Part shown: piece by piece, positions 16,939 to 26,100 of the stretch | Position numbering within the stretch: position 1 is the stretch's first letter | Layout of the letters: each line of letters starts with the position of its first letter | Position numbers and translations under genes: made by a program | Notes under the pieces: model-generated | The model's database searches: none | Told to the model about the DNA's origin: nothing | What the model saw: the letters and a program-made list of their open reading frames with translations, nothing else | Assembly (NCBI GenBank): GCA_040882355.1 | Contig: JBBEBM010000033.1 | Span: forward strand, 1 to 32,051 | Origin: Dehalococcoidia bacterium | GTDB lineage: Bacteria > Chloroflexota > Dehalococcoidia > DSTF01 > RBG-16-68-14 | Reading direction: 5' to 3' | DNA length: 32,051 bases

Positions 16939-17547
16939 ATGATGAGCAACCTACCGCAGAACGTGATGATCCCGTCGGTGATCGAGACGAGCCCCCGGGG
17001 GGAGCGCGCGTTCGACATCTACTCGATGCTGCTCAAGGAGCGGATCATCTTCATGGGCACGCCGATCGACGACCAGATCGCGAACCTGGTGATCGCCCAG
17101 CTCCTCTTCCTGGCGCGAGAGGACCCGGACAAGGACATTCAGATGTACATCCACTCGCCCGGGGGCATCATCCCGGCGGGGCTGGCGATCTACGACACGA
17201 TGCAGATTATCCGGCCGGACGTCGCCACGTACTGCGTGGGCGTGACGGCGAGCATGGCGACGATCCTGCTCTCCGCCGGCACGAAGGGCAAGCGCTACGC
17301 GCTGCCCCACTCCACCATCCACATGCACCAGGCGATGGGCGGCGGTCGGGGCCAGGCCGTGGACGTTGAGATCATGGCCAAGGAGCTGCTCCGCGAGAAC
17401 GAGATCATCCGCCAGATCCTGGTGCAGAACACGGGTCAGAACGAGGAGCGAATTCGTCGCGATTTTGACCGAGACTTCTATATGGACCCGCACCAGGCTA
17501 AGGAGTACGGCATTGTCGACGAGATCCTCTCGAGAATAGAGGACTGA
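16939..17547 (+). CDS. clpP: ATP-dependent Clp protease proteolytic subunit
   Basis: [25 protein letters not shown], catalytic Ser in TASMA, His in MHQ, Asp in DRD. Confidence 0.97.
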
Positions 17548-17611
17548 GCGAACTTCGGGTAGCTTCGGAGCGTTATGGCTGAGAGAGAGACGGGAAGAGA
17601 GGTTAGCTGGC

Positions 17612-18934
17612 ATGACGGGTAGTCGGGCTGGCAGGACGCAGTACCACTGTTCCTTCTGTGGGAAGAACCAGGACCAGGTCAAACGGCTGATCGCCGGCCC
17701 TGGCGCGGTCTACATCTGCGACGAGTGCGTGGAGCTGTGCCGCGAGATCATCGATGAGGAAGTAGCGGGCTCGCCCCGACCCAAGGCAACGAGCCAGCGC
17801 GTCCCGCCCCCGCGACAGGTCCAGGAGCATCTCAGCCAGTACGTCATCGGCCAGGACCAGGCCAAGAAGGTGCTCGCGGTGGCGGTGTACAACCACTACA
17901 AGCGCATCAACACCAACGCCATCCAGGACGACGTGGAGCTTGAGAAGAGCAACATCCTGCTCCTGGGCCCCACAGGCTGCGGCAAGACCCACCTGGCGCG
18001 CACGCTGGCCCGCATCCTGGACGTGCCGTTCACCATCGCCGACGCGACCGCGCTCACGGAGGCCGGCTACGTGGGCGAGGACGTGGAGAACATCCTGCTC
18101 CACCTGATCCAGGCGGCGGACTTCGACATCCAGCGCGCCGAGCGGGGCATCGTCTACATCGACGAGATCGACAAGATCGCCCGCAAGAGCGACAACCCAT
18201 CGATCACGCGCGACGTCTCGGGCGAGGGCGTGCAGCAGGCGCTGCTGAAGATCATCGAAGGCACCGTAGCGAACGTGCCGCCTCAGGGCGGACGCAAGCA
18301 CCCGCACCAGGACTTCATTCAGATCAACACCGGTGGCATCCTCTTCATCTGTGGCGGCGCCTTCGAAGGGCTGGACAAGATCATTGAGCGGCGCCTCTCG
18401 CAGGACAAGCGCTCGATGGGCTTCAAGGCGGACTACGCGGGCAAGCGCGGCCAAGAGCGCGCCGACGAGCTGATCAAGCACGTCACGCACGACGATCTGC
18501 TCCAGTACGGTCTGATTCCTGAGTTCGTTGGCCGCCTGCCGATGGCCGTGGGGCTGGAAGCGCTGGGCCGCGACGAGCTGCGCCTCATCTTGACGGAGCC
18601 GCGGAACGCGCTGATCAAGCAGTTCCAGCGCTTCTTCGCCATGGACGGCGTGGAGCTGGCCTTCACCGACGACGCGCTGGACGCGTGCGCCGAGGACGCC
18701 ATCCGTCACAAGACGGGCGCGCGCGGCCTGCGCACCGTCCTGGAGGACGTCCTCCTGGACGTAATGTACGAGATCCCGTCCCGCAGTGACGTGAAGAAGT
18801 GCGTCGTCACGGCCGAGTCGATCCGCAGTCACCAGCGGCCGCTGCTGCTCACGCGCACCGGCCAGGTGGTACCCAGCGAGCCGATCACACCCGCGGACCC
18901 GGAAGACGACGAGGCCAAGGACGCCACCGCCTAG
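17612..18934 (+). CDS. clpX: ATP-dependent Clp protease ATP-binding subunit ClpX
   Basis: Zn finger CSFCGK...ICDECV, Walker [21 protein letters not shown] loop, GARGLR. Confidence 0.97.
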
Positions 18935-18953: not shown

Positions 18954-18988
18954 CGAAAGGGCCGCNNNNNNNNNNCTCGGCCCTTTCG
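18954..18988. terminator. Inverted repeat between convergent clpX and the vWA gene; likely bidirectional terminator (loop contains a 10-N gap)
   Basis: CGAAAGGGCCG (18954-18964) / CGGCCCTTTCG (18978-18988). Confidence 0.6.
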
Positions 18989-19018: not shown

Positions 19019-22000
19019 CTAGGGTTCGCTCGTATTCGGGTTGATCGGTTCCTGCGGCGGGTGCGGCTCGGCGCACGTGCTGGTGTGGCGGCCGTACACG
19101 AACTGCACGTCCTTGATGTCGACGTCGCCGTCGCCGACGATCTGGCCCGACGGCTCCAGGTCGAAGCGCTCGTTGTAGAGCAGCGAGCCGAGCGTCACGC
19201 CCCAGCGGAACGCGAGGAGCTGCTGGTCACGAATGTCGACGGCACAGTCTCCGTTGACGTCGCCTTCCAGCCAGCGGATGGTGAGGTCGGCGTCCTCACA
19301 GCGGTCGCCCTTGATGGGGTGACCCTGCAGGTCGGCCAGGTTGCAGCCCACGTTGAGGATCTCGACCACGATCCCGTTCTCCTGGTTCGCGCGGATGATT
19401 GAGTAGAGCTCCGGTTGCGGCCGGACGATCACTCGCGCAAGCTCCAGCGAGGTGCTTACCGGGCCGTCCTTGCCCACCACGACGCAGCCGATCCGCGCTA
19501 AGCCGTCCGGCTGCAAGCCCTGGTCCTTGTCGTCGATGAAGCAGGTCATCCCCGTCTCGGTGGGGTACTGGCCCGGCTCGATGTTCACGCACACCAGGTC
19601 CTCATCGAACAGCACCTCGAACTCGAAGCCGCCGATGATCTGGGTCTCGGTCGGGTCCTTCGGATCGGGCGTGCTCGGCAGGTTGGTGAGCCGGTGCTCG
19701 AAGACAACCTTGTTCGTGCTCGCCTCGCAGGTGCTGGGTGGCAGCTTCACGCCCTGGGCCGTCAGGAACAGGTTCGCCTGATCCGGGGACTTCACGTGCG
19801 AGGGAGAGCCGGTCGGCGTTGGCTCGCCCGGCGTCGCCGTAGCTCCGCCTCCTGGGTCCGTGGCCGTGGGTGTCGCCGTCCTGGTTGCGGTGCGCGTCGC
19901 CGTGGGCTGCGGCGTGTTGGTGGCCGTTGCCGTCGCCGTCCGGGTATTGGTCGGCGTTGCCGTTGGCTCCGGGGTATCGGTCGGCGTTGACGTCGGCGTG
20001 CGCGTGTTCGTCGGGGTCGCTGTTGGCTCAGGCGTATCGGTCGACGTGGGTGTCGGCGTGCGCGTGTTCGTCGGGGTCGGCGTGTCCGTCGCCGTCGGTG
20101 TCGGTGTCGGCGTATCTGTCGAGGTGGGAGTTGGCGTGCGCGTGTTCGTTGGGGTTGGCGTATCGGTCGCCGTCGGCGTCGGCGTGCGTGTATTCGTCGG
20201 AGTCGGCGTATCGGTCGCCGTCGGCGTCGGGGTGCGCGTCTTCGTCGCCGTCGGCGTATCGGTCGGCGTCGGCGTGCCCGTCGGGGTATTGGTCACGGTG
20301 GGCGTCGGCGTGCGAGTCGGCGTGTCCGTCGGCGTGCTCGTGGGCGGCGGCGTCAGCGGCGTGTCCGTTGGGGTCGGCGTATCGGTCGGCGTCGGGGTGT
20401 CCGTTCCCGTGGCTGTCGGAGTTGGCGTGCGCGTAACGGTAGGCGTCGGCGTGCGCGTCGCTGTGGGCGTGTTGGTGCCCGTGTTCGTCGGGGTGGGCGT
20501 CCGGGTCGGCGTGTCTGTTGGGGTCGGTGTGTTGGTACCCGTGTTCGTGGGCGTGGGGGTCCGCGTCGGCGTGTTCGTCGGGGTCGGCGTGTTCGTGCCG
20601 GTGTTGGTCGGAGTGGGTGTCCGCGTGGCCGTATTCGTCGGCGTCGGCGTGTTGGTGCCGGTGTTGGTCGGCGTAGGCGTGCGCGTCGGCGTATCCGTCG
20701 GCGTCGGCGTGCGCGTGTTCGTCACCGTCGGCGTCGGCGTGCGCGTGTTCGTCGCCGTCGGCGTCGGCGTGCGCGTGTTCGTCGCCGTCGGCGTCGGCGT
20801 GCGCGTGGCTGTCGCCGTCTTCGTCGGCGTCGGCGTCGGCGTGATGTTTCCGCAGCCGAGGTCGAGCTCTGTCAGACCACCCGAGTTTGCGTACACAACC
20901 TCGATGCGCCGTACGCCGCCGATGTTGACGTTGAACGTCTGGACGCTGCCGTCAGCGCCAATAGGCATCGGCACGGTCCCGAGCGATACGTTGCCGCTGT
21001 CGAAGAACTCCGCGTATGCGTTCGGGTCCGCGTCGTGGTCGACGAAGACGAACGAGTACACGATGCGGTCGTGGTCGAAGGTGTAGATCTGGACGCCGCC
21101 AGCCACGCTGTCGTTAGGGGAGTCTACGAGGCCGTTCGCTGGCGACGTGTCGGTGACGTTTTCAGGAATGATCGAGATGTTGCCGACGTCCACCTCCAGG
21201 TCCGGGTCGGCGGTGCCCGTCTGGAACGTGTCGAACACGATCGTCGTGTTCGGCCGACCGTTGTTGGCCAGCGCGGAGAGGTGGATGCCATCGGCGGCGT
21301 ACTGCTCCGCCAGGATGGTCCCGTGGGGCAGGCCGTCGTAGTCCAGCACCAGCGGCACGCAGGAGCCGAGGGTCGGCGTCGGCGTGAAGGTGGGCGTCCG
21401 AGTCGGCGTGAAGGTCGCCTGAGGCGCGACGGTGTTCGTTGGCGTGGGCGTCCGCGTCCGTGTCGCCGTCTTGGTCGCCGTCTTGGTTGGTGTCGCGCAG
21501 ATCGCGTTCGCGATCTGGTCGAAGAGCTGACTGATGTCGTCGGGCGAGCCGTTGACGTAATGCGCCGGCGACGAGGCCAGGAGCTGGTTAAGCGTGGCGT
21601 CGTCGTTGGAGCTTTGCGAGTAGCCGATGACGTAGACCTGGGTACCGGCGAGCTTCGTCTGGGCCGCCCAGTAGACCGAGTAGACGTCAGCGCCGTCACC
21701 GCTGAAGTAGGTGTCCTGCGTCACGACACCGCTGCGCCTCACCGCCAGCTCGTCACTGTGGCCGCTGACGAAGACCGGAGCGCTGCCGGGATTGGGCCCG
21801 TTTGTCGGATGCACCTCGAACGTGCCGTTGTTGTTGGCGTCCAAGTACAGCGTGCCGTCGATGATGCGGAAGTTGGCTGGCGGGTTGGGCACAACGCCGT
21901 CGAAGTTGTAGTCGTCTGAGTTGTTCAGGGAGCCGCTGTCGTTCGCGTCCAGCTCGTTGATCGGCGAGCTGTTTGAGCGGTTCACCGTCCACAGGCCGTT

Positions 22001-22696
22001 GACCACGATGAAGTCGGCCGTGGAGTCGCCACCGGGAAAGTCGACGCTCAGGTCGTCGGCGGAGTCGATGATGCCGTTGTCGTTCACGTCGATGTGGAAG
22101 TCGTTCTCGCTGCCCGAGTCGTCGATGTCGAGCGGCCGGTTAGAGCCGCCGTCGGAGAGGATCACCATGTAGTCGTTGGTGTCGGGATCGCTGTCGGGCT
22201 CGGTCGGCAGCTCCAGTTGGAGCTGGGCGAGGTTGATGGCGCGGCCGACGTTCGTGTTGCCCAGGGCGTTGTAGCCGGTGATGTCGCTGCGCAACGGCAC
22301 GGCGTTGGTGGTCAGCGTCTCATCGGTTGTCGCGCTGCCGCTGGAGAAACCGATGAGCGCGATCTGGTGAGGAGTCAGGTCATTGTCGCTTGGGCCGCCG
22401 GCGAAGGCGTCGATGAAGCCGATGGCCGCGGTCCTGGCGTTCTCGATCTTGTTCGCCTGGTCGTCCATGCTGCCAGAGTGGTCGAAGACGATGGCGATAT
22501 CGACGGGATTCGCACAGCTCTCCTCGCCGGTAGCGCCGGCGAGCTGTCCGTTTGCGGAGAGGAGGGTGACGAGCGCGCCAACCGCCACGACGAGCGCTCC
22601 CACGGTGAGGCCAAACCACCCGACGCGCCGCCAGAGCGCGCCCGCATAGGTGATGCGCGATTGATCCTTGCGCTCAAAGCGAGAGTCAAGCCCCAA
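19019..22696 (-). CDS. Large secreted surface protein: signal/TM - vWA domain - beta-rich domain - Thr/Pro stalk - cohesin-like domain - dockerin-like domain
   Basis: Hydrophobic N-terminus; MIDAS DHSGS, TNVG and ILSDG; ~340-aa TP-rich tract; [14 protein letters not shown] cohesin-like strand; [13 protein letters not shown]...GDGDVDIKD duplicated Ca-binding loops. Confidence 0.85.
19810..20845 (-). repeat. Thr/Pro-rich coding repeats (units such as [10 protein letters not shown], 30 bp)
   Basis: Near-exact 30-bp repeats GTCGGCGTCGGCGTGCGCGTGTTCGTC(G/A)CC at ~20697-20810, degenerate elsewhere. Confidence 0.9.
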
Positions 22697-22872
22697 GCGA
22701 GTCTCCCTCTACGATATTGCACCGCAAGCCCGCTCCTGGCAGGCAGCAGCATCTAGTGCGGGGAAAAGTATAGGGGCGCTGCGTCGGCGGGGAACCAACG
22801 CCACCAGTCAGGTTGAATCTAGCAGAGTATTGCCAAGGGTGTCAACCCCAAAGGCCCGCCTGAGCCGAAATT

Positions 22873-23775
22873 TTATGCCTGGAGCTGCGAATCTGAGCCG
22901 GATGGCGGGCTACCGCCGCCCCGCCGGAGCAGAACAGCGCCCCCAACCACGGCAAGGGCGACCGCCACGACCGCCGCGATCCCGATGATGACCCAGACGG
23001 AGCTTCCGCCGCCGCTCCCCTCAAGCTCCACTGACGCGCTCTGCGGGTCGTGCGGGATGTTGACTATCTGGCCTTCCTGGCTGCCGGGCGGGTCAACGTC
23101 GTCCAGCAAGAGCTGCGTATCGGTGAGTTGCAACTCGGCCGTGCCATCGCCGATCGCTTCGAAGGTCATCGTGGCGAGGGCATCCGAACCTGATACGCCC
23201 GCTGGACCGTCGAGAGAGACGGGCGGCCCCGAGCTGAAGCAGTTGATGAAGACGCGCGTTCGTTCTACTTTTCCGACCTCCAGCGCCTTGTCCGTCTCCG
23301 ATGCCGGGAACCAGGCCGTAACGGCGCCCTCGCCCTCGTCAGGCGCCTGGATGATCACTCCTTGAATCGTATTCAGCTCCGTGTCGATCTGAGAGACCGA
23401 CCCGCTCAGCTCCACCCAGCCGTTCGGGCTGTCGACGCACTGGGGCTCGCGCTCGCCGTCGATGAAGAACGGCTCCATCTGACCCGATACGAGCCGGAGC
23501 TGTTCGTGGTCGTAGTCGATGAAGGCGTCGAAGCCGGCAAGGTGCTCGACGTTCTCGATCACCAGTTGCACGTCGAACTGCTCGCCGTCGGCGATGGGGC
23601 CCGGCGGCGCCTCAACGCGCAGGACGGTCGAGGCCGCCCCCGCCGTCGGCGTGGGGGAAGGTTCCTGGGCGAGCGAGATGGACGGCCCCAGCAGGAGCGC
23701 GGCCAGCGTCGCTGCGACGGCAAGCGCAAGCGTCCGCCTGCCGGGCCTGCGCGTTCCTGAATCGTGGACCGTCAT
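22873..23775 (-). CDS. Cohesin-domain protein with signal peptide and C-terminal membrane anchor
   Basis: Signal peptide ...SISLA/QE; GEQFDVQLVIENVEHLAGFDAFIDYDHEQL and SGSDALATMTFEAIGDGTAELQL cohesin motifs; GSGGGSS linker, TM helix, then RR; ATG 23775 lies 9 nt after TATACT. Confidence 0.8.
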   Translation of the reverse strand: MTVHDSGTRRPGRRTLALAVAATLAALLLGPSISLAQEPSPTPTAGAASTVLRVEAPPGPIADGEQFDVQLVIENVEHLAGFDAFIDYDHEQLRLVSGQMEPFFIDGEREPQCVDSPNGWVELSGSVSQIDTELNTIQGVIIQAPDEGEGAVTAWFPASETDKALEVGKVERTRVFINCFSSGPPVSLDGPAGVSGSDALATMTFEAIGDGTAELQLTDTQLLLDDVDPPGSQEGQIVNIPHDPQSASVELEGSGGGSSVWVIIGIAAVVAVALAVVGGAVLLRRGGGSPPSGSDSQLQA

Positions 23776-23821
23776 TTGGGTCTGAGTATACAACGATGGG
23801 CCACTATAGTCAGCGGCCACG

Positions 23822-25015
23822 CTAAGGCGCAGACAGGACGATCACGACGTTGTTCCCGCCGAAGGCGAAGGCGTTCGAGACCACATGGCGCAGCTCCACC
23901 CCTTCGCGGGCCTTGGGCACGAAATCGAAGGCCTCGTAGCCTTCGATGGGCGTCCTCAGGCCGACCGTCGGCGGGAGGAAGCGCTCGCGCAGCGCCAGCG
24001 CGCAGATGACGGCTTCGCCCGCGCCGCTGGCGCCCAGCGCGTGGCCGAGCATGCCCTTCGTGGATGAGATGGGGACCGAGGCCGCGCGTTCGCCGAAGAC
24101 CTGTGTGAGCGCGGCCAGCTCCACCGGATCGTTCTGCGGCGTGCCTGTGCCATGCGTGTTGATGTAGTCGATGGCATCCGACGCGAGGCCGGCGTCGGCA
24201 AGTGCGCGGCGGAGCGCCAGCACAGCGCCGGCGCCCTGCTCGTCCGGCCTGACGACGTGGAACGCGTCGGCGCTCGCTCCCGAGCCGGCGACGCGCGCGT
24301 AGGGCCGGACACCGCGACTCTGGACGCGCTCTGCCGATTCCAGCACGACAAAGGCGGCGAGCTCAGCGAGCTGGACGCCGTCGCGCTCCGCATCGAAGGG
24401 GTGAACGCCCGTGGGCGAGATAGCGCGGAGCGCCTCGAAGCCGGCAAGCGCCATCCTGGTAAGCACCTCGGCGCCGCCCACGACGGCGACCTCCGCCCGG
24501 CCGCCACGGATAAGGTCGGCGCCAACGGCGATCGCCTGGGCGCCGGCGGCGCAGGCGTTGACGAAGGTGAGCTGGCGCCCGCGAAGACCGAGGCGGACGG
24601 CCAGCTTGCTGGTGGTGGCGTTGGGCGGCTGCAGCGGGTCGGGATTTTCCATGATGAGGGCGGCTTCGGACGCGCCCAAGGAGCGCGTGATCGCCCGCAT
24701 GTCGCCGGCGGCGGTGCCCAGCGCCAGCGTGGCGTCCTCCGGCAGTGAGCCGTCGAGGCCGGCGTCGGCGATCGCTTCGCGGCAGGCGCGGAGCGCGAAC
24801 GCGAGGCAGCGTCCTTCCTCCAGGTCGGCCCCATCGCCGGCAAAGGCCGCATCGTCGACCTCCGCGCCCTGGCCGATGCGGAAGTCCGCCGGATCGAGCT
24901 CGCGCAGCCGGCCGAGCCCGCAGCAGCCCGCGCGCAGTCCTTCCACGAAGGCGACTTTCCCGACGCCGATGGGCGAGACGATGCCCAGGCCGGTGATGTA
25001 CGCGTCGCTGCTCAC
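23822..25015 (-). CDS. Beta-ketoacyl-ACP synthase (FabF-like / type II KS), catalytically intact
   Basis: Cys in NACAAG, His in THGTGT, Lys/His in STKGMLGH, SNAFAFGGNN. Confidence 0.93.
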   Translation of the reverse strand: MSSDAYITGLGIVSPIGVGKVAFVEGLRAGCCGLGRLRELDPADFRIGQGAEVDDAAFAGDGADLEEGRCLAFALRACREAIADAGLDGSLPEDATLALGTAAGDMRAITRSLGASEAALIMENPDPLQPPNATTSKLAVRLGLRGRQLTFVNACAAGAQAIAVGADLIRGGRAEVAVVGGAEVLTRMALAGFEALRAISPTGVHPFDAERDGVQLAELAAFVVLESAERVQSRGVRPYARVAGSGASADAFHVVRPDEQGAGAVLALRRALADAGLASDAIDYINTHGTGTPQNDPVELAALTQVFGERAASVPISSTKGMLGHALGASGAGEAVICALALRERFLPPTVGLRTPIEGYEAFDFVPKAREGVELRHVVSNAFAFGGNNVVIVLSAP

Positions 25016-26100
25016 GGCGGAGCCCTCACCACGAGGCTGGTCACCGCACCGCCCATCTCGAAGGCGTTGACGAGGACCGTCTCGCCGGCCTTGCCCTCCA
25101 GGTACGCGAGGCCCACGAGCAGGCTGATGGCGGCGGCGGCACCGAGCGTTTCGCCGAGCAGTCGCTTCGGACGCAGCAGGGTCAGCGACGCGCCACGCTC
25201 GCCGAAGACGGCATCGACCGCCGCGCGCTCGCAGCGCTCGGCGAGCTCATCGCCGCTTGCGAGCACGACCGTCGAGACCGCGTCCGCCGCGACGCAGGCA
25301 TCGGCAAGCGCGCCGCGCATTGCGCTGGCGAGCGCCGTGCCATCGTGGTCCGCGCTCCACGGCAGGGCGACCTCCTGGGGCTCGGACGCGGCGCCTGCGC
25401 CGATCAGCTCCGCGAAACGGGAGGCGCCGCGCGCCTCGGCGTGCGCCGCCTCCTCGAGCACGACGAAGGCCGCACCCTGCGCCGGCGCGGGATGCTCGAC
25501 GCCGGAGCGCCGCACCAGCTCGTGGAAGTAGCGCAGGCACTTGGGAGACTGGAACTCGCCGCCGCCGGCGACGACGGCAGGGTCGCGGCCGCCGCGCACC
25601 CAATCGAGTGCGACCTCAAGGGCGCTGCTGCCGCCGAGCACCGTCGTGCTGCCGCGCAGGCCCAGCGCGATGCCGACGCGGCTCGCGGGCATGCTGAGCA
25701 GGCTATCGACGAAGACGGCGGGGCGCGCCGCCCGCGGCCCGGACGTCAACAGGCGCTCGAGGTAGGGCTCAAGCCAGGTGGTAGGGCCGAAGATCGTGTT
25801 CATCGCCAGACCCACGTCATCGAGCGGGCCGTCGCCCGTCGCGAGCCTCGCTTCGCTTAGCGCTTGGCGGACAGCAGCCGTCGCCATCGCGCCCAGGGGC
25901 TCGTCGTGCCTGGCCGCGACAAAGGCAGCGAGCGCGTCGGCATCGGAGAGGAGGTGGCAGAGCGGCGGCTCGTCGGGCAAGGCGCCGAGGAAGGGGCGCG
26001 GCCCCGCGCCCTGCTCCGCTCTCACCGCCGTTGCGAACGACGGCCAATCGCAGCCGATGGGCGACAGGACGCCGCGGCCGGTGATGACGGCGCGTTTCAT
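25012..26100 (-). CDS. Non-catalytic ketosynthase homolog (chain-length-factor-like)
   Basis: KS fold (RAVITGRGVLSPIG, QGAAFVVLEE, PKRLLGETLGA), but the catalytic Cys loop is missing (TVLGGSSAL), there is no HGTGT, and the second His is Glu. Confidence 0.85.
   Translation of the reverse strand: MKRAVITGRGVLSPIGCDWPSFATAVRAEQGAGPRPFLGALPDEPPLCHLLSDADALAAFVAARHDEPLGAMATAAVRQALSEARLATGDGPLDDVGLAMNTIFGPTTWLEPYLERLLTSGPRAARPAVFVDSLLSMPASRVGIALGLRGSTTVLGGSSALEVALDWVRGGRDPAVVAGGGEFQSPKCLRYFHELVRRSGVEHPAPAQGAAFVVLEEAAHAEARGASRFAELIGAGAASEPQEVALPWSADHDGTALASAMRGALADACVAADAVSTVVLASGDELAERCERAAVDAVFGERGASLTLLRPKRLLGETLGAAAAISLLVGLAYLEGKAGETVLVNAFEMGGAVTSLVVRAPP

Follow-up and report, generated by a model that had tools for sequence, protein, structure and literature searches.

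Genes A and B in the window

The stretch of DNA analyzed here, called the window below, is positions 1 to 32,051 of contig JBBEBM010000033.1 (C33 in our numbering of the contigs) in assembly GCA_040882355.1, from an uncultured Dehalococcoidia bacterium of the Chloroflexota. The genome is 93.9% complete. Two adjacent genes of the window are the subject of this study. Both are open reading frames (ORFs) of the minus strand in the ORF list, as had been described in a first-pass annotation made from the sequence alone, and all features of the two genes given below lie on that strand. Gene A (22873..23775) encodes a 300-aa protein, the anchor, with a single cohesin. Gene B (19019..22696) has a TTG start and encodes a predicted surface protein of 1225 aa, called the cargo below. 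The first-pass annotation had proposed that the product of gene A is a membrane anchor on which the product of gene B docks with a dockerin at its C-terminal end, so that a VWA head is displayed on a Thr/Pro stalk.

The anchor protein

The longest ORF of gene A was 22873-23820, with GTG at 23820. Close homologues were found in only seven cases among 5.8 billion clusters, and in the alignment all seven (7/7) begin where gene A has its ATG at 23775. This position, which was also the end coordinate in the first-pass annotation, is therefore the likely start of gene A. A scan of genome contigs with patterns of the gene A family found no relative, because the patterns derived from a genus-specific insert.

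The translation and a hydrophobicity scan showed a signal-peptide-like N-terminus (23665..23775) with a basic n-region, a hydrophobic core and SLAQ-E (RRPGRRTLALAVAATLAALLL...SLAQE), followed by an ectodomain of ~205 beta-rich residues. The C-terminal part (22876..23016) consists, in this order, of ELEGSGGGSS, a hydrophobic helix of 23 residues, W276-L298 (22927-22995; P0002 numbering, that of the gene A product), and LLRRGGGSPP..., which we read as a Gly/Ser linker, a transmembrane (TM) helix and a basic cytoplasmic tail. The AlphaFold2 (AF2) model placed the helix at 275-299. This region was conserved in 8/8 members of the gene A family, as were the 15 residues after RR. From this sequence the gene A product is predicted to have the topology of a type I membrane protein. 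Anchoring by sortase was also considered. No LPXTG-type motif was found in the translation directly before W276 and the C-terminal helix, and sortase anchoring was ruled out on sequence because of this and of the conserved 15-residue tail after RR.

The cohesin domain of the anchor (23017..23637, residues 62-268) was recognized from its AF2 model, by fold search and by a family profile. Searches of the PDB by sequence and by profile returned only spurious matches of the TM region to MHC chains, and with respect to these searches the identity of the domain was revealed by the fold search only. The predicted local distance difference test (pLDDT) was >80 across most of residues 62-268. The best match of the model was 1g1k_A, with Z 14.9 and a root-mean-square deviation (rmsd) of 2.2 Å over 135 of 143 residues, and cohesins of types I, II and III made up 49 of the 50 listed entries. 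The match to the OlpC cohesin (4dh2) had Z 13.6, and in Foldseek the top match had E 1.4e-7, with 82 matches at E <= 0.001. In addition, the gene A family profile matched the repeats of a scaffoldin-like protein encoded on another contig of the genome, C44, with E 4.2e-25; this protein itself matched Pfam Cohesin with E 2.1e-27. Translation, AF2 model and fold search together bore out the earlier description of gene A as signal peptide, cohesin, Gly/Ser linker, TM helix and RR.

Head and stalk of the cargo

The hydrophobicity scan of the gene B product showed a single hydrophobic segment, which is N-terminal (residues 27-48, 22553..22618), and none at the C-terminal end. By its sequence this segment of 22 residues may be either a cleaved signal peptide or an uncleaved signal anchor.

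A VWA domain (21461..22501) was identified by Pfam and by its motif. The Pfam VWA profile (PF00092) matched the whole protein with E 3.3e-9 and 37.6 bits, over the cut-off of 23.8, and the cut piece with E 1.5e-10 in two stretches. The metal-ion-dependent adhesion site (MIDAS) is defined by the motif D-x-S-x-S, and a motif of this type, D72-H-S-G-S76, is intact in the translation. The domain carries an Asp/Asn-rich insertion of ~170 aa. Three EF-hand-like Asp/Asn loops were noticed in this insertion (cargo residues ~200-300, window ~21800-22100), and Pfam gave no match on them.

The VWA domain is followed by a middle domain (residues 456-640, 20777..21331), for which no Pfam family was found at E up to 10 and only unnamed Atlas features at <=0.84; this region was homologous to the cut cargo of a related genome (locus L068, E 1.8e-85). 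The Thr/Pro stalk (residues ~641-965, ~320 aa; 19802..20776) was recognized from the translation and from the tandem-repetitive DNA that encodes it, the tandem arrays covering 19860-20842. The VWA head and the Thr/Pro stalk described in the first-pass annotation were confirmed by the Pfam score and by the translation. The same architecture was found in an independently assembled relative (L060), whose 920-aa protein has a VWA domain, a Thr/Pro stalk and a cohesin followed by a dockerin.

The assemblies of this lineage were seen to break in the Thr/Pro-stalk repeats, at loci L067-L071, L074 and L078 and at contigs C51 and C61 of the window's genome (G000). Because of these breaks, cargo genes next to an anchor are often truncated and tail fragments stand alone on contig edges, and counts of stalked proteins in metagenome-assembled genomes (MAGs) are underestimates.

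The C-terminal tail of the cargo

The last 253 residues of the cargo (the tail, P0001) contain both of the calcium loops quoted in the first-pass annotation. The dockerin that had been claimed is present; what the annotation had missed is a second cohesin fold directly before it. This domain (tail residues 1-168, 19277..19780; cargo residues 973-1140) matched no Pfam family at E up to 10, and was recognized by fold search: its best match was 4uyq_A (Z 12.6, rmsd 2.5 Å, 132 of 143 residues aligned), all 50 listed entries were cohesins, the Foldseek E was 1.1e-6, and the match to OlpC (4dh2) had Z 11.8. The beta-sandwich fused before the dockerin aligns with cohesins in the fold search, which bears on the question of whether the tail is an X-dockerin (XDoc) dyad. 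The tail cohesin may be either an X-module-like buttress or a further docking site.

The dockerin (tail residues 169-240, 19061..19276) was identified with phmmer and a family profile. It aligned over 50 residues to the dockerin chain 2y3n_B with E 7.3e-4. A profile of the last 75 residues of the tail matched C62:65758-67092, elsewhere in the genome, with E 3.9e-12, and the latter matched Pfam Dockerin_1 with E 7.1e-15. Calcium loops of dockerins follow the pattern D-x-N-x-D-x-x-x-D-x-x-D. The first loop of the tail fits this pattern, and D174, V181 and D185 are invariant in 23 sequences; the second aligned to the second repeat of 2y3n_B in phmmer. No NCBIfam family matched the tail at E up to 10 or the whole of gene B at E up to 1. 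A comparison of the gene A family with the alignment of tail proteins by hhalign gave a probability of 13.8% over an N-terminal stretch, a value that is uninformative since that alignment contains the proteins in full length.

Homologues of the cohesin-dockerin (Coh-Doc) dyad were searched for with phmmer among 1.84 billion cluster representatives; the search gave 541 at E <= 0.001, of which 374 reached 1e-10 and 118 reached 1e-30. Among the best 150 representatives, all 150 had the dockerin half and 146 had the cohesin half, and in 127 of these 146 the cohesin was directly followed by the dockerin. The dockerin ended <=25 residues from the C-terminus in 117 of the 150, and more than 100 residues followed it in 22. 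The heads of the proteins with this tail vary from protein to protein. In species-representative genomes, 77 of 78 dyad loci came from MAGs titled Chloroflexota, Dehalococcoidia or Chloroflexia; the odd one was a Woykebacteria record, with a match to the dockerin part only. These sequence comparisons show that the dyad is a conserved C-terminal module, in which the cohesin half appears to be an obligate partner of the dockerin.

Prediction of the complex

Complex modeling covered one pairing, the anchor cohesin (residues 62-268, alignment of 8 rows) with the cargo dockerin (tail 160-245, alignment of 23 rows) and two calcium ions, together with three controls. The first-pass annotation had named this prediction as a check of its proposal, and the pair passed: the interaction prediction score from aligned errors (ipSAE) was 0.77 (runs 0.77, 0.77 and 0.79), against 0.36 for the best of the controls. 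The mark used for this score is reached by 116 of 157 solved complexes and by 2 of 215 mismatched pairs. The runs shared >=96% of their contacts, and the pLDDT of the partners was >=67 (67-68 for the dockerin). In the model, dockerin residues 182-193 and 222-234, the helix after each calcium loop, contact one face of the cohesin sheet. This is the arrangement in solved cohesin-dockerin complexes.

Linkage and distribution in related genomes

The linkage of anchor and dyad was analyzed at 21 anchor loci, the window and 20 from related genomes. A dyad-bearing gene was adjacent or in the same cluster in nine (the window, L059, L060, L062-L066 and L075) and lay 2 kb from the anchor in one more (L061). 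In several others the contig ended too soon. At L070 the downstream ORF shows just the opening residues of the dyad before the contig ends, as judged by eye; at L068 a downstream homologous VWA head (E 1.8e-85) is cut in its stalk; at five loci (L067, L069, L071, L074 and L078) an exported downstream ORF enters Thr/Pro repeats and leaves the contig; and L077 is cut early. The last three loci are taken up with the points against our proposal.

At L062-L065, in four genomes of another family, the order of genes was scaffoldin, a dyad protein of ~570-600 aa, and anchor. A hydrophobic segment lies close to the C-terminal end of this dyad protein (positions 522-560), so the protein may itself be membrane-bound. 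Two tandem cohesins before the TM helix were seen in the anchors L066:3717-4877 (387 aa) and L070:6156-7397 (414 aa).

In 41 related genomes, the anchor profile and the tail each matched 30; both parts were found in 28 genomes, neither in 9, and 4 were discordant, where the hits of the anchor profile include generic cohesins and the genomes are not independent of each other. One family of relatives had 0/8 for the anchor and 0/8 for the tail.

Proposed assembly

The cohesin folds, the predicted topology, the family distribution and the gene linkage described above were shown in the analysis. The complex model supports docking of the cargo on the anchor, and we propose, with a probability of roughly 55%, that genes A and B encode the receptor and the ligand of a cohesin-dockerin system for surface assembly that is specific to a lineage of uncultured Dehalococcoidia. 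It also seems to us slightly more probable than the contrary that the cohesin bound by the cargo dockerin is specifically that of gene A.

In this proposal, the gene A product would be exported and fixed to the cytoplasmic membrane by its C-terminal helix, the basic tail facing inward, so that one type-I-like cohesin would be kept just outside the membrane. The gene B product would also be exported, and its dockerin, presumably loaded with calcium, would lay helices 1 and 3 on the face of the cohesin beta-sheet. We infer this binding, its dependence on calcium and the identity of the cohesin partner. The Thr/Pro stalk would then keep the middle domain and the VWA head, with its MIDAS, at a distance from the cell; there the head would bind a ligand, and the role of the cargo would presumably be adhesive.

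Cohesin and dockerin proteins elsewhere in the genome

A Pfam scan of the genome at E <= 1 gave 23 matches to dockerin and 14 to cohesin, and the contig of the window had none of these. With our family profiles and six-frame ORFs, the dyad was found on six complete ORFs: the cargo, C44:17598-19790, two on C43, C75:24733-25971 and an ORF of 1623 aa on C44. It was also found on three fragments, at the start of contig C51, at the end of C61 and on C58.

The 1623-aa protein (C44:7359-12230, L079) is scaffoldin-like, with a signal and 4-5 cohesins, those matched by the gene A family profile. Its Coh-Doc dyad lies at about residues 1139-1332 and is followed by a Thr/Pro stalk of ~280 residues and by LPATG, a hydrophobic helix and RARRRQE, which is a sortase-type sorting signal. 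The genome had one sortase match (C29:23459-23887), and the domain scan found no SLH domain in it. The two proteins on C43 (C43:68089-72242, L080) are tandem paralogues of 650-660 aa, in which a Pfam-positive cohesin, a Thr/Pro linker, the dyad, another Thr/Pro linker and a further tail-type cohesin follow each other. By this layout they look like adaptors with three cohesin folds and one dockerin. Gene A was the only gene of the genome in which the family profile found this type of cohesin joined to a TM helix.

Pfam was also run on 28 cohesin- or dockerin-bearing proteins, a subset with regard to the dockerin matches of the genome. VWA, DUF11, RCC1, PD40/FG-GAP/NHL, Big_1 and Peptidase_M23 were found, and no glycoside hydrolase or carbohydrate-binding module was found on these 28, which agrees with the earlier view that the cargo looks adhesive rather than cellulolytic. 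The window pair belongs, as one node, to a larger network, probably a cohesin-dockerin network of the cell surface.

Points against docking and alternative readings

Several results weigh against docking of the cargo on the anchor. To begin with the domains, Pfam, which had been named in the first-pass annotation as a check, did not place either over its cut-off. Cohesin (PF00963) scored 16.9 bits on the whole anchor and 18.1 bits on the cut ectodomain (cut-off 24.1), spanning profile positions 12-51 only in the ectodomain. In favor of the assignment, one of the seven gene A homologues (P0007) carries a precomputed PF00963 match. Dockerin_1 (PF00404) scored 11.5 bits on the 253-aa tail and 15.1 on an 89-aa piece (cut-off 22.9). 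Of the pair of calcium loops that had been claimed for an exported protein without a membrane anchor at its C-terminal end, the lack of an anchor there and the canonical first loop stood, but the second loop is atypical. Structure prediction, which had likewise been named as a check, gave a clear cohesin fold for the anchor, but the AF2 model of the dockerin alone had one helix (183-192) and a pLDDT of ~40 (36-43) beyond it.

These results would fit a reading in which the likeness is in fold only: the sandwich of gene A would bind a glycan or another component of the envelope, and the two genes would lie side by side because surface proteins are regulated together. Similarity of fold does not by itself establish function, and for three of the 21 anchor loci (L072, L073 and L076) no dyad gene was found near the anchor in the fetched stretch. 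This reading is, however, hard to reconcile with the profile homology of both domains to cohesins and dockerins elsewhere in the genome that Pfam does recognize, with the predominance of cohesins among the listed entries of the fold search, and with the co-distribution and linkage of anchor and module. We regard it as extremely improbable, and the identities of the two domains as cohesin and dockerin as hardly in doubt.

Docking on the anchor also depends on the state of the cargo itself. Its N-terminal hydrophobic segment might stay in the membrane, and docking would then be unnecessary for retention of the protein. Logan contigs tile the region, but none of them bridges 20186-20778 in the stalk repeat, so the join of the VWA head to the tail rests on the original assembler.

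The complex model has to be read with similar care. Many cohesin-dockerin complexes have been solved, so the pair may have passed by recall; the pass indicates likeness rather than binding by this copy, and says nothing on specificity. Specificity matters because of the many possible partners in the genome. The dockerins of the Coh-Doc tails are 66-78% identical across paralogues, one anchor gene stands against at least six module-bearing proteins, and other cohesins are available, 4-5 anchor-like ones on the C44 scaffoldin and others on the two C43 proteins. With dockerins so similar and cohesins so numerous, several partners are plausible for each tail, and one anchor would serve many tails.

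The same system might thus be wired in another way: the cargo dockerin would find its cohesin on the C44 scaffoldin or on another tail, and the anchor cohesin would receive a different dockerin, for example that of the scaffoldin or of an adaptor. In addition to the similarity of the dockerins and the excess of module proteins over anchors, this is suggested by the match of the gene A family profile to the scaffoldin cohesins, by which anchor-type cohesins are not unique to gene A. The cluster of scaffoldin, module protein and anchor at L062-L065 fits a hierarchy, and close cousins of true partners pass the complex test too (10 of 12 colicin pairs). On the other hand, anchor and module-bearing gene are immediate neighbors in several families, the model with the anchor cohesin beats its controls, and nothing in the analysis, which modeled this pairing only, favors another partner. 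A different wiring is in our view rather unlikely, though it deserves serious attention. The claim of the first-pass annotation that gene A anchors and gene B docks is in agreement with the topology, the complex score and the recurrent gene pairing, but the true partner of the cargo dockerin may be another cohesin.

Finally, the cargo bears a cohesin of its own beside the dockerin. The pairing of anchor and cargo in relatives agrees with the original two-gene model, but that model leaves this second cohesin, in what seems to be an obligate dyad, unexplained. The dyad could be self-contained, with the dockerin bound to its own cohesin in cis or exchanged reciprocally between two tails, and the tail would then be a stable cap, a dimerization unit or a sorting tag without docking on gene A. 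The two halves occur nearly always together among the best 150 representatives, mostly contiguous, and the fold matches include 2xdh, the cohesin of an archaeal protein that is reported to have cohesin and dockerin in one chain. AF2 modeling of the whole tail, however, left the dockerin unplaced (pLDDT 36-43 over 190-230), the conserved neighboring anchor gene would be unexplained, and the complex model places the dockerin on the anchor cohesin with confidence. A self-contained dyad appears very unlikely to us.

A bolder possibility is that the dyad is a self-complementary building block, in which the dockerin of each tail binds the cohesin of the next tail so that fibers or a mesh are formed; we consider this quite unlikely. 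In such a polymer, the cohesin of gene A or the sortase-linked scaffoldin would prime and hold a chain of different heads, which is a similarly long shot. If true, it would mean a protein coat built by cohesin-dockerin polymerization in a lineage without SLH-type anchoring. Docking of the cargo on the anchor is the reading that we retain, with the distribution counts taken subject to the reservations given with them.

Relation of the tail to flexitail

We also asked how the Coh-Doc tail is related to flexitail (NCBIfam NF041520, cut-off 40 bits), another C-terminal tail that is common to many exported Chloroflexota proteins of the same genome. The genome has 61 flexitail matches, 51 of them over the cut-off, all at C-terminal ends of frames of 100-2500 aa, and none on the contig of the window. 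As no NF041520 match was found for the tail at E up to 10, the assignment of the tail to flexitail was rejected. Flexitail has no cohesin half, unlike the Coh-Doc tail, and shows a weak overlap with dockerins recognized by Pfam (E 4.6e-4 on L085); in one protein (C52:59518-60921) it directly follows a Pfam cohesin. Among relatives, flexitail was present in 15/15 genomes of the window's family and in 1/8 and 1/7 of two sister families. Both flexitail-poor sister families still have anchor-dyad clusters, and clusters of anchor and module are present in the flexitail-free genomes G017, G021, G025 and G028.

Surroundings of the gene pair

The pair is flanked by clpP/clpX (16939-18934, plus strand) and by two ketoacyl-synthase-like ORFs (23822-26100, minus strand). 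Two sigma-70-like sites were recognized on the minus strand by consensus match only, against 0.4 expected: one 5' of the gene A ATG (23785..23813) and one, TTGACA-18-TAGATT, in the 177-bp gap between genes A and B (22816..22845). Because of the latter site, the two genes may be transcribed separately. Between clpX and the cargo gene, which are convergent, there is an inverted repeat (GAAAGGGCCG ... CGGCCCTTTC) with 10 N (18966-18975) in its loop. By its sequence it looks like a terminator hairpin shared by the two genes, with the loop masked or unresolved. No RNA runs containing this stretch were found.

Comparison with known systems

To the best of our knowledge, cohesin-dockerin pairing is understood almost entirely through the cellulosomes of Firmicutes. 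The literature searches, judged mostly from listings, found nothing on a cohesin-dockerin display system in Chloroflexota or Dehalococcoidia, in line with the first-pass annotation, which was aware of no such system characterized in Chloroflexota. The cohesins of the window are 9-17% identical in sequence to solved ones.

Cellulosomes are fixed to cells through anchors with a single cohesin, such as ScaE of Ruminococcus flavefaciens, which receives the XDoc of ScaB or CttA, and OlpA/OlpC and SdbA of Clostridium thermocellum; CttA is a non-enzymatic adhesin displayed through its XDoc. Structures from these anchoring systems, 2zf9, 4iu2/4iu3, 3ul4, 4dh2 and 2bm3, were among the fold matches of our two cohesin models. 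As in ScaE, OlpA/OlpC and SdbA, a surface-fixed single cohesin would receive the C-terminal dockerin of another exported protein, and as in XDoc, the dockerin of gene B is preceded by a fused beta-sandwich. Unlike the cellulosome anchors, gene A uses a TM helix instead of a sortase signal or SLH repeats, and unlike the Ig-like X module of XDoc, the domain before the gene B dockerin has the full fold of a cohesin. The cargo also differs, as it carries a VWA head, no glycoside hydrolase was found on the scanned proteins of the network, and the host is an uncultured Dehalococcoidia bacterium.

Outside the cellulosome, cohesin-dockerin pairs join glycoside hydrolases to each other in the toxin complexes of Clostridium perfringens. 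Structures 2jh2, 2vo8, 2w1n and 2o4e from these complexes were among the fold matches, with Z 10.5-13.0 for the anchor model. Both cases would join secreted proteins without a cellulosome, but in C. perfringens there is no membrane anchor for the cargo.

Non-cellulosomal cohesin and dockerin modules, including a cohesin of Archaeoglobus fulgidus, were reportedly catalogued by Peer et al. in 2009 (FEMS Microbiol Lett 291:1). In our searches, the archaeal 2xdh matched the anchor with Z 13.5 and the tail cohesin with Z 10.8. The window shares with these modules the occurrence of cohesin and dockerin in an organism that apparently does not degrade cellulose. Most of the catalogued modules are scattered, whereas here a conserved two-gene unit, a family of Coh-Doc modules and a scaffoldin are found in the same genome.

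The function of cohesins and dockerins outside the cellulosome is described as not known in a review (PMC5244752), and the available part of one paper reports no dockerin in Anaerolineae genomes. One genome that holds a membrane anchor, a sortase-type multi-cohesin scaffoldin, adaptors and a family of tails on non-enzymatic heads offers a concrete set of testable protein pairs for the role of such systems. It also offers a candidate explanation for the attachment of these bacteria to particles or partners. The Coh-Doc module, with no Pfam hit over the cut-off and no NCBIfam hit, may further provide new orthogonal binding pairs for protein engineering.

A study of freshwater Planctomycetes describes the planctosome, a non-cellulolytic, cellulosome-like surface complex proposed in silico (PMC6461901), as is the model presented here. 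The two have in common a cohesin anchor, an adaptor with dockerin and cohesin, and dockerin-bearing cargo. In what that source presents, the planctosome has a lamin-tail anchor on the outer membrane, peptidase cargo and a diderm host, and includes neither a TM-anchored cohesin nor a terminal Coh-Doc dyad, the two elements that are brought together by genes A and B.

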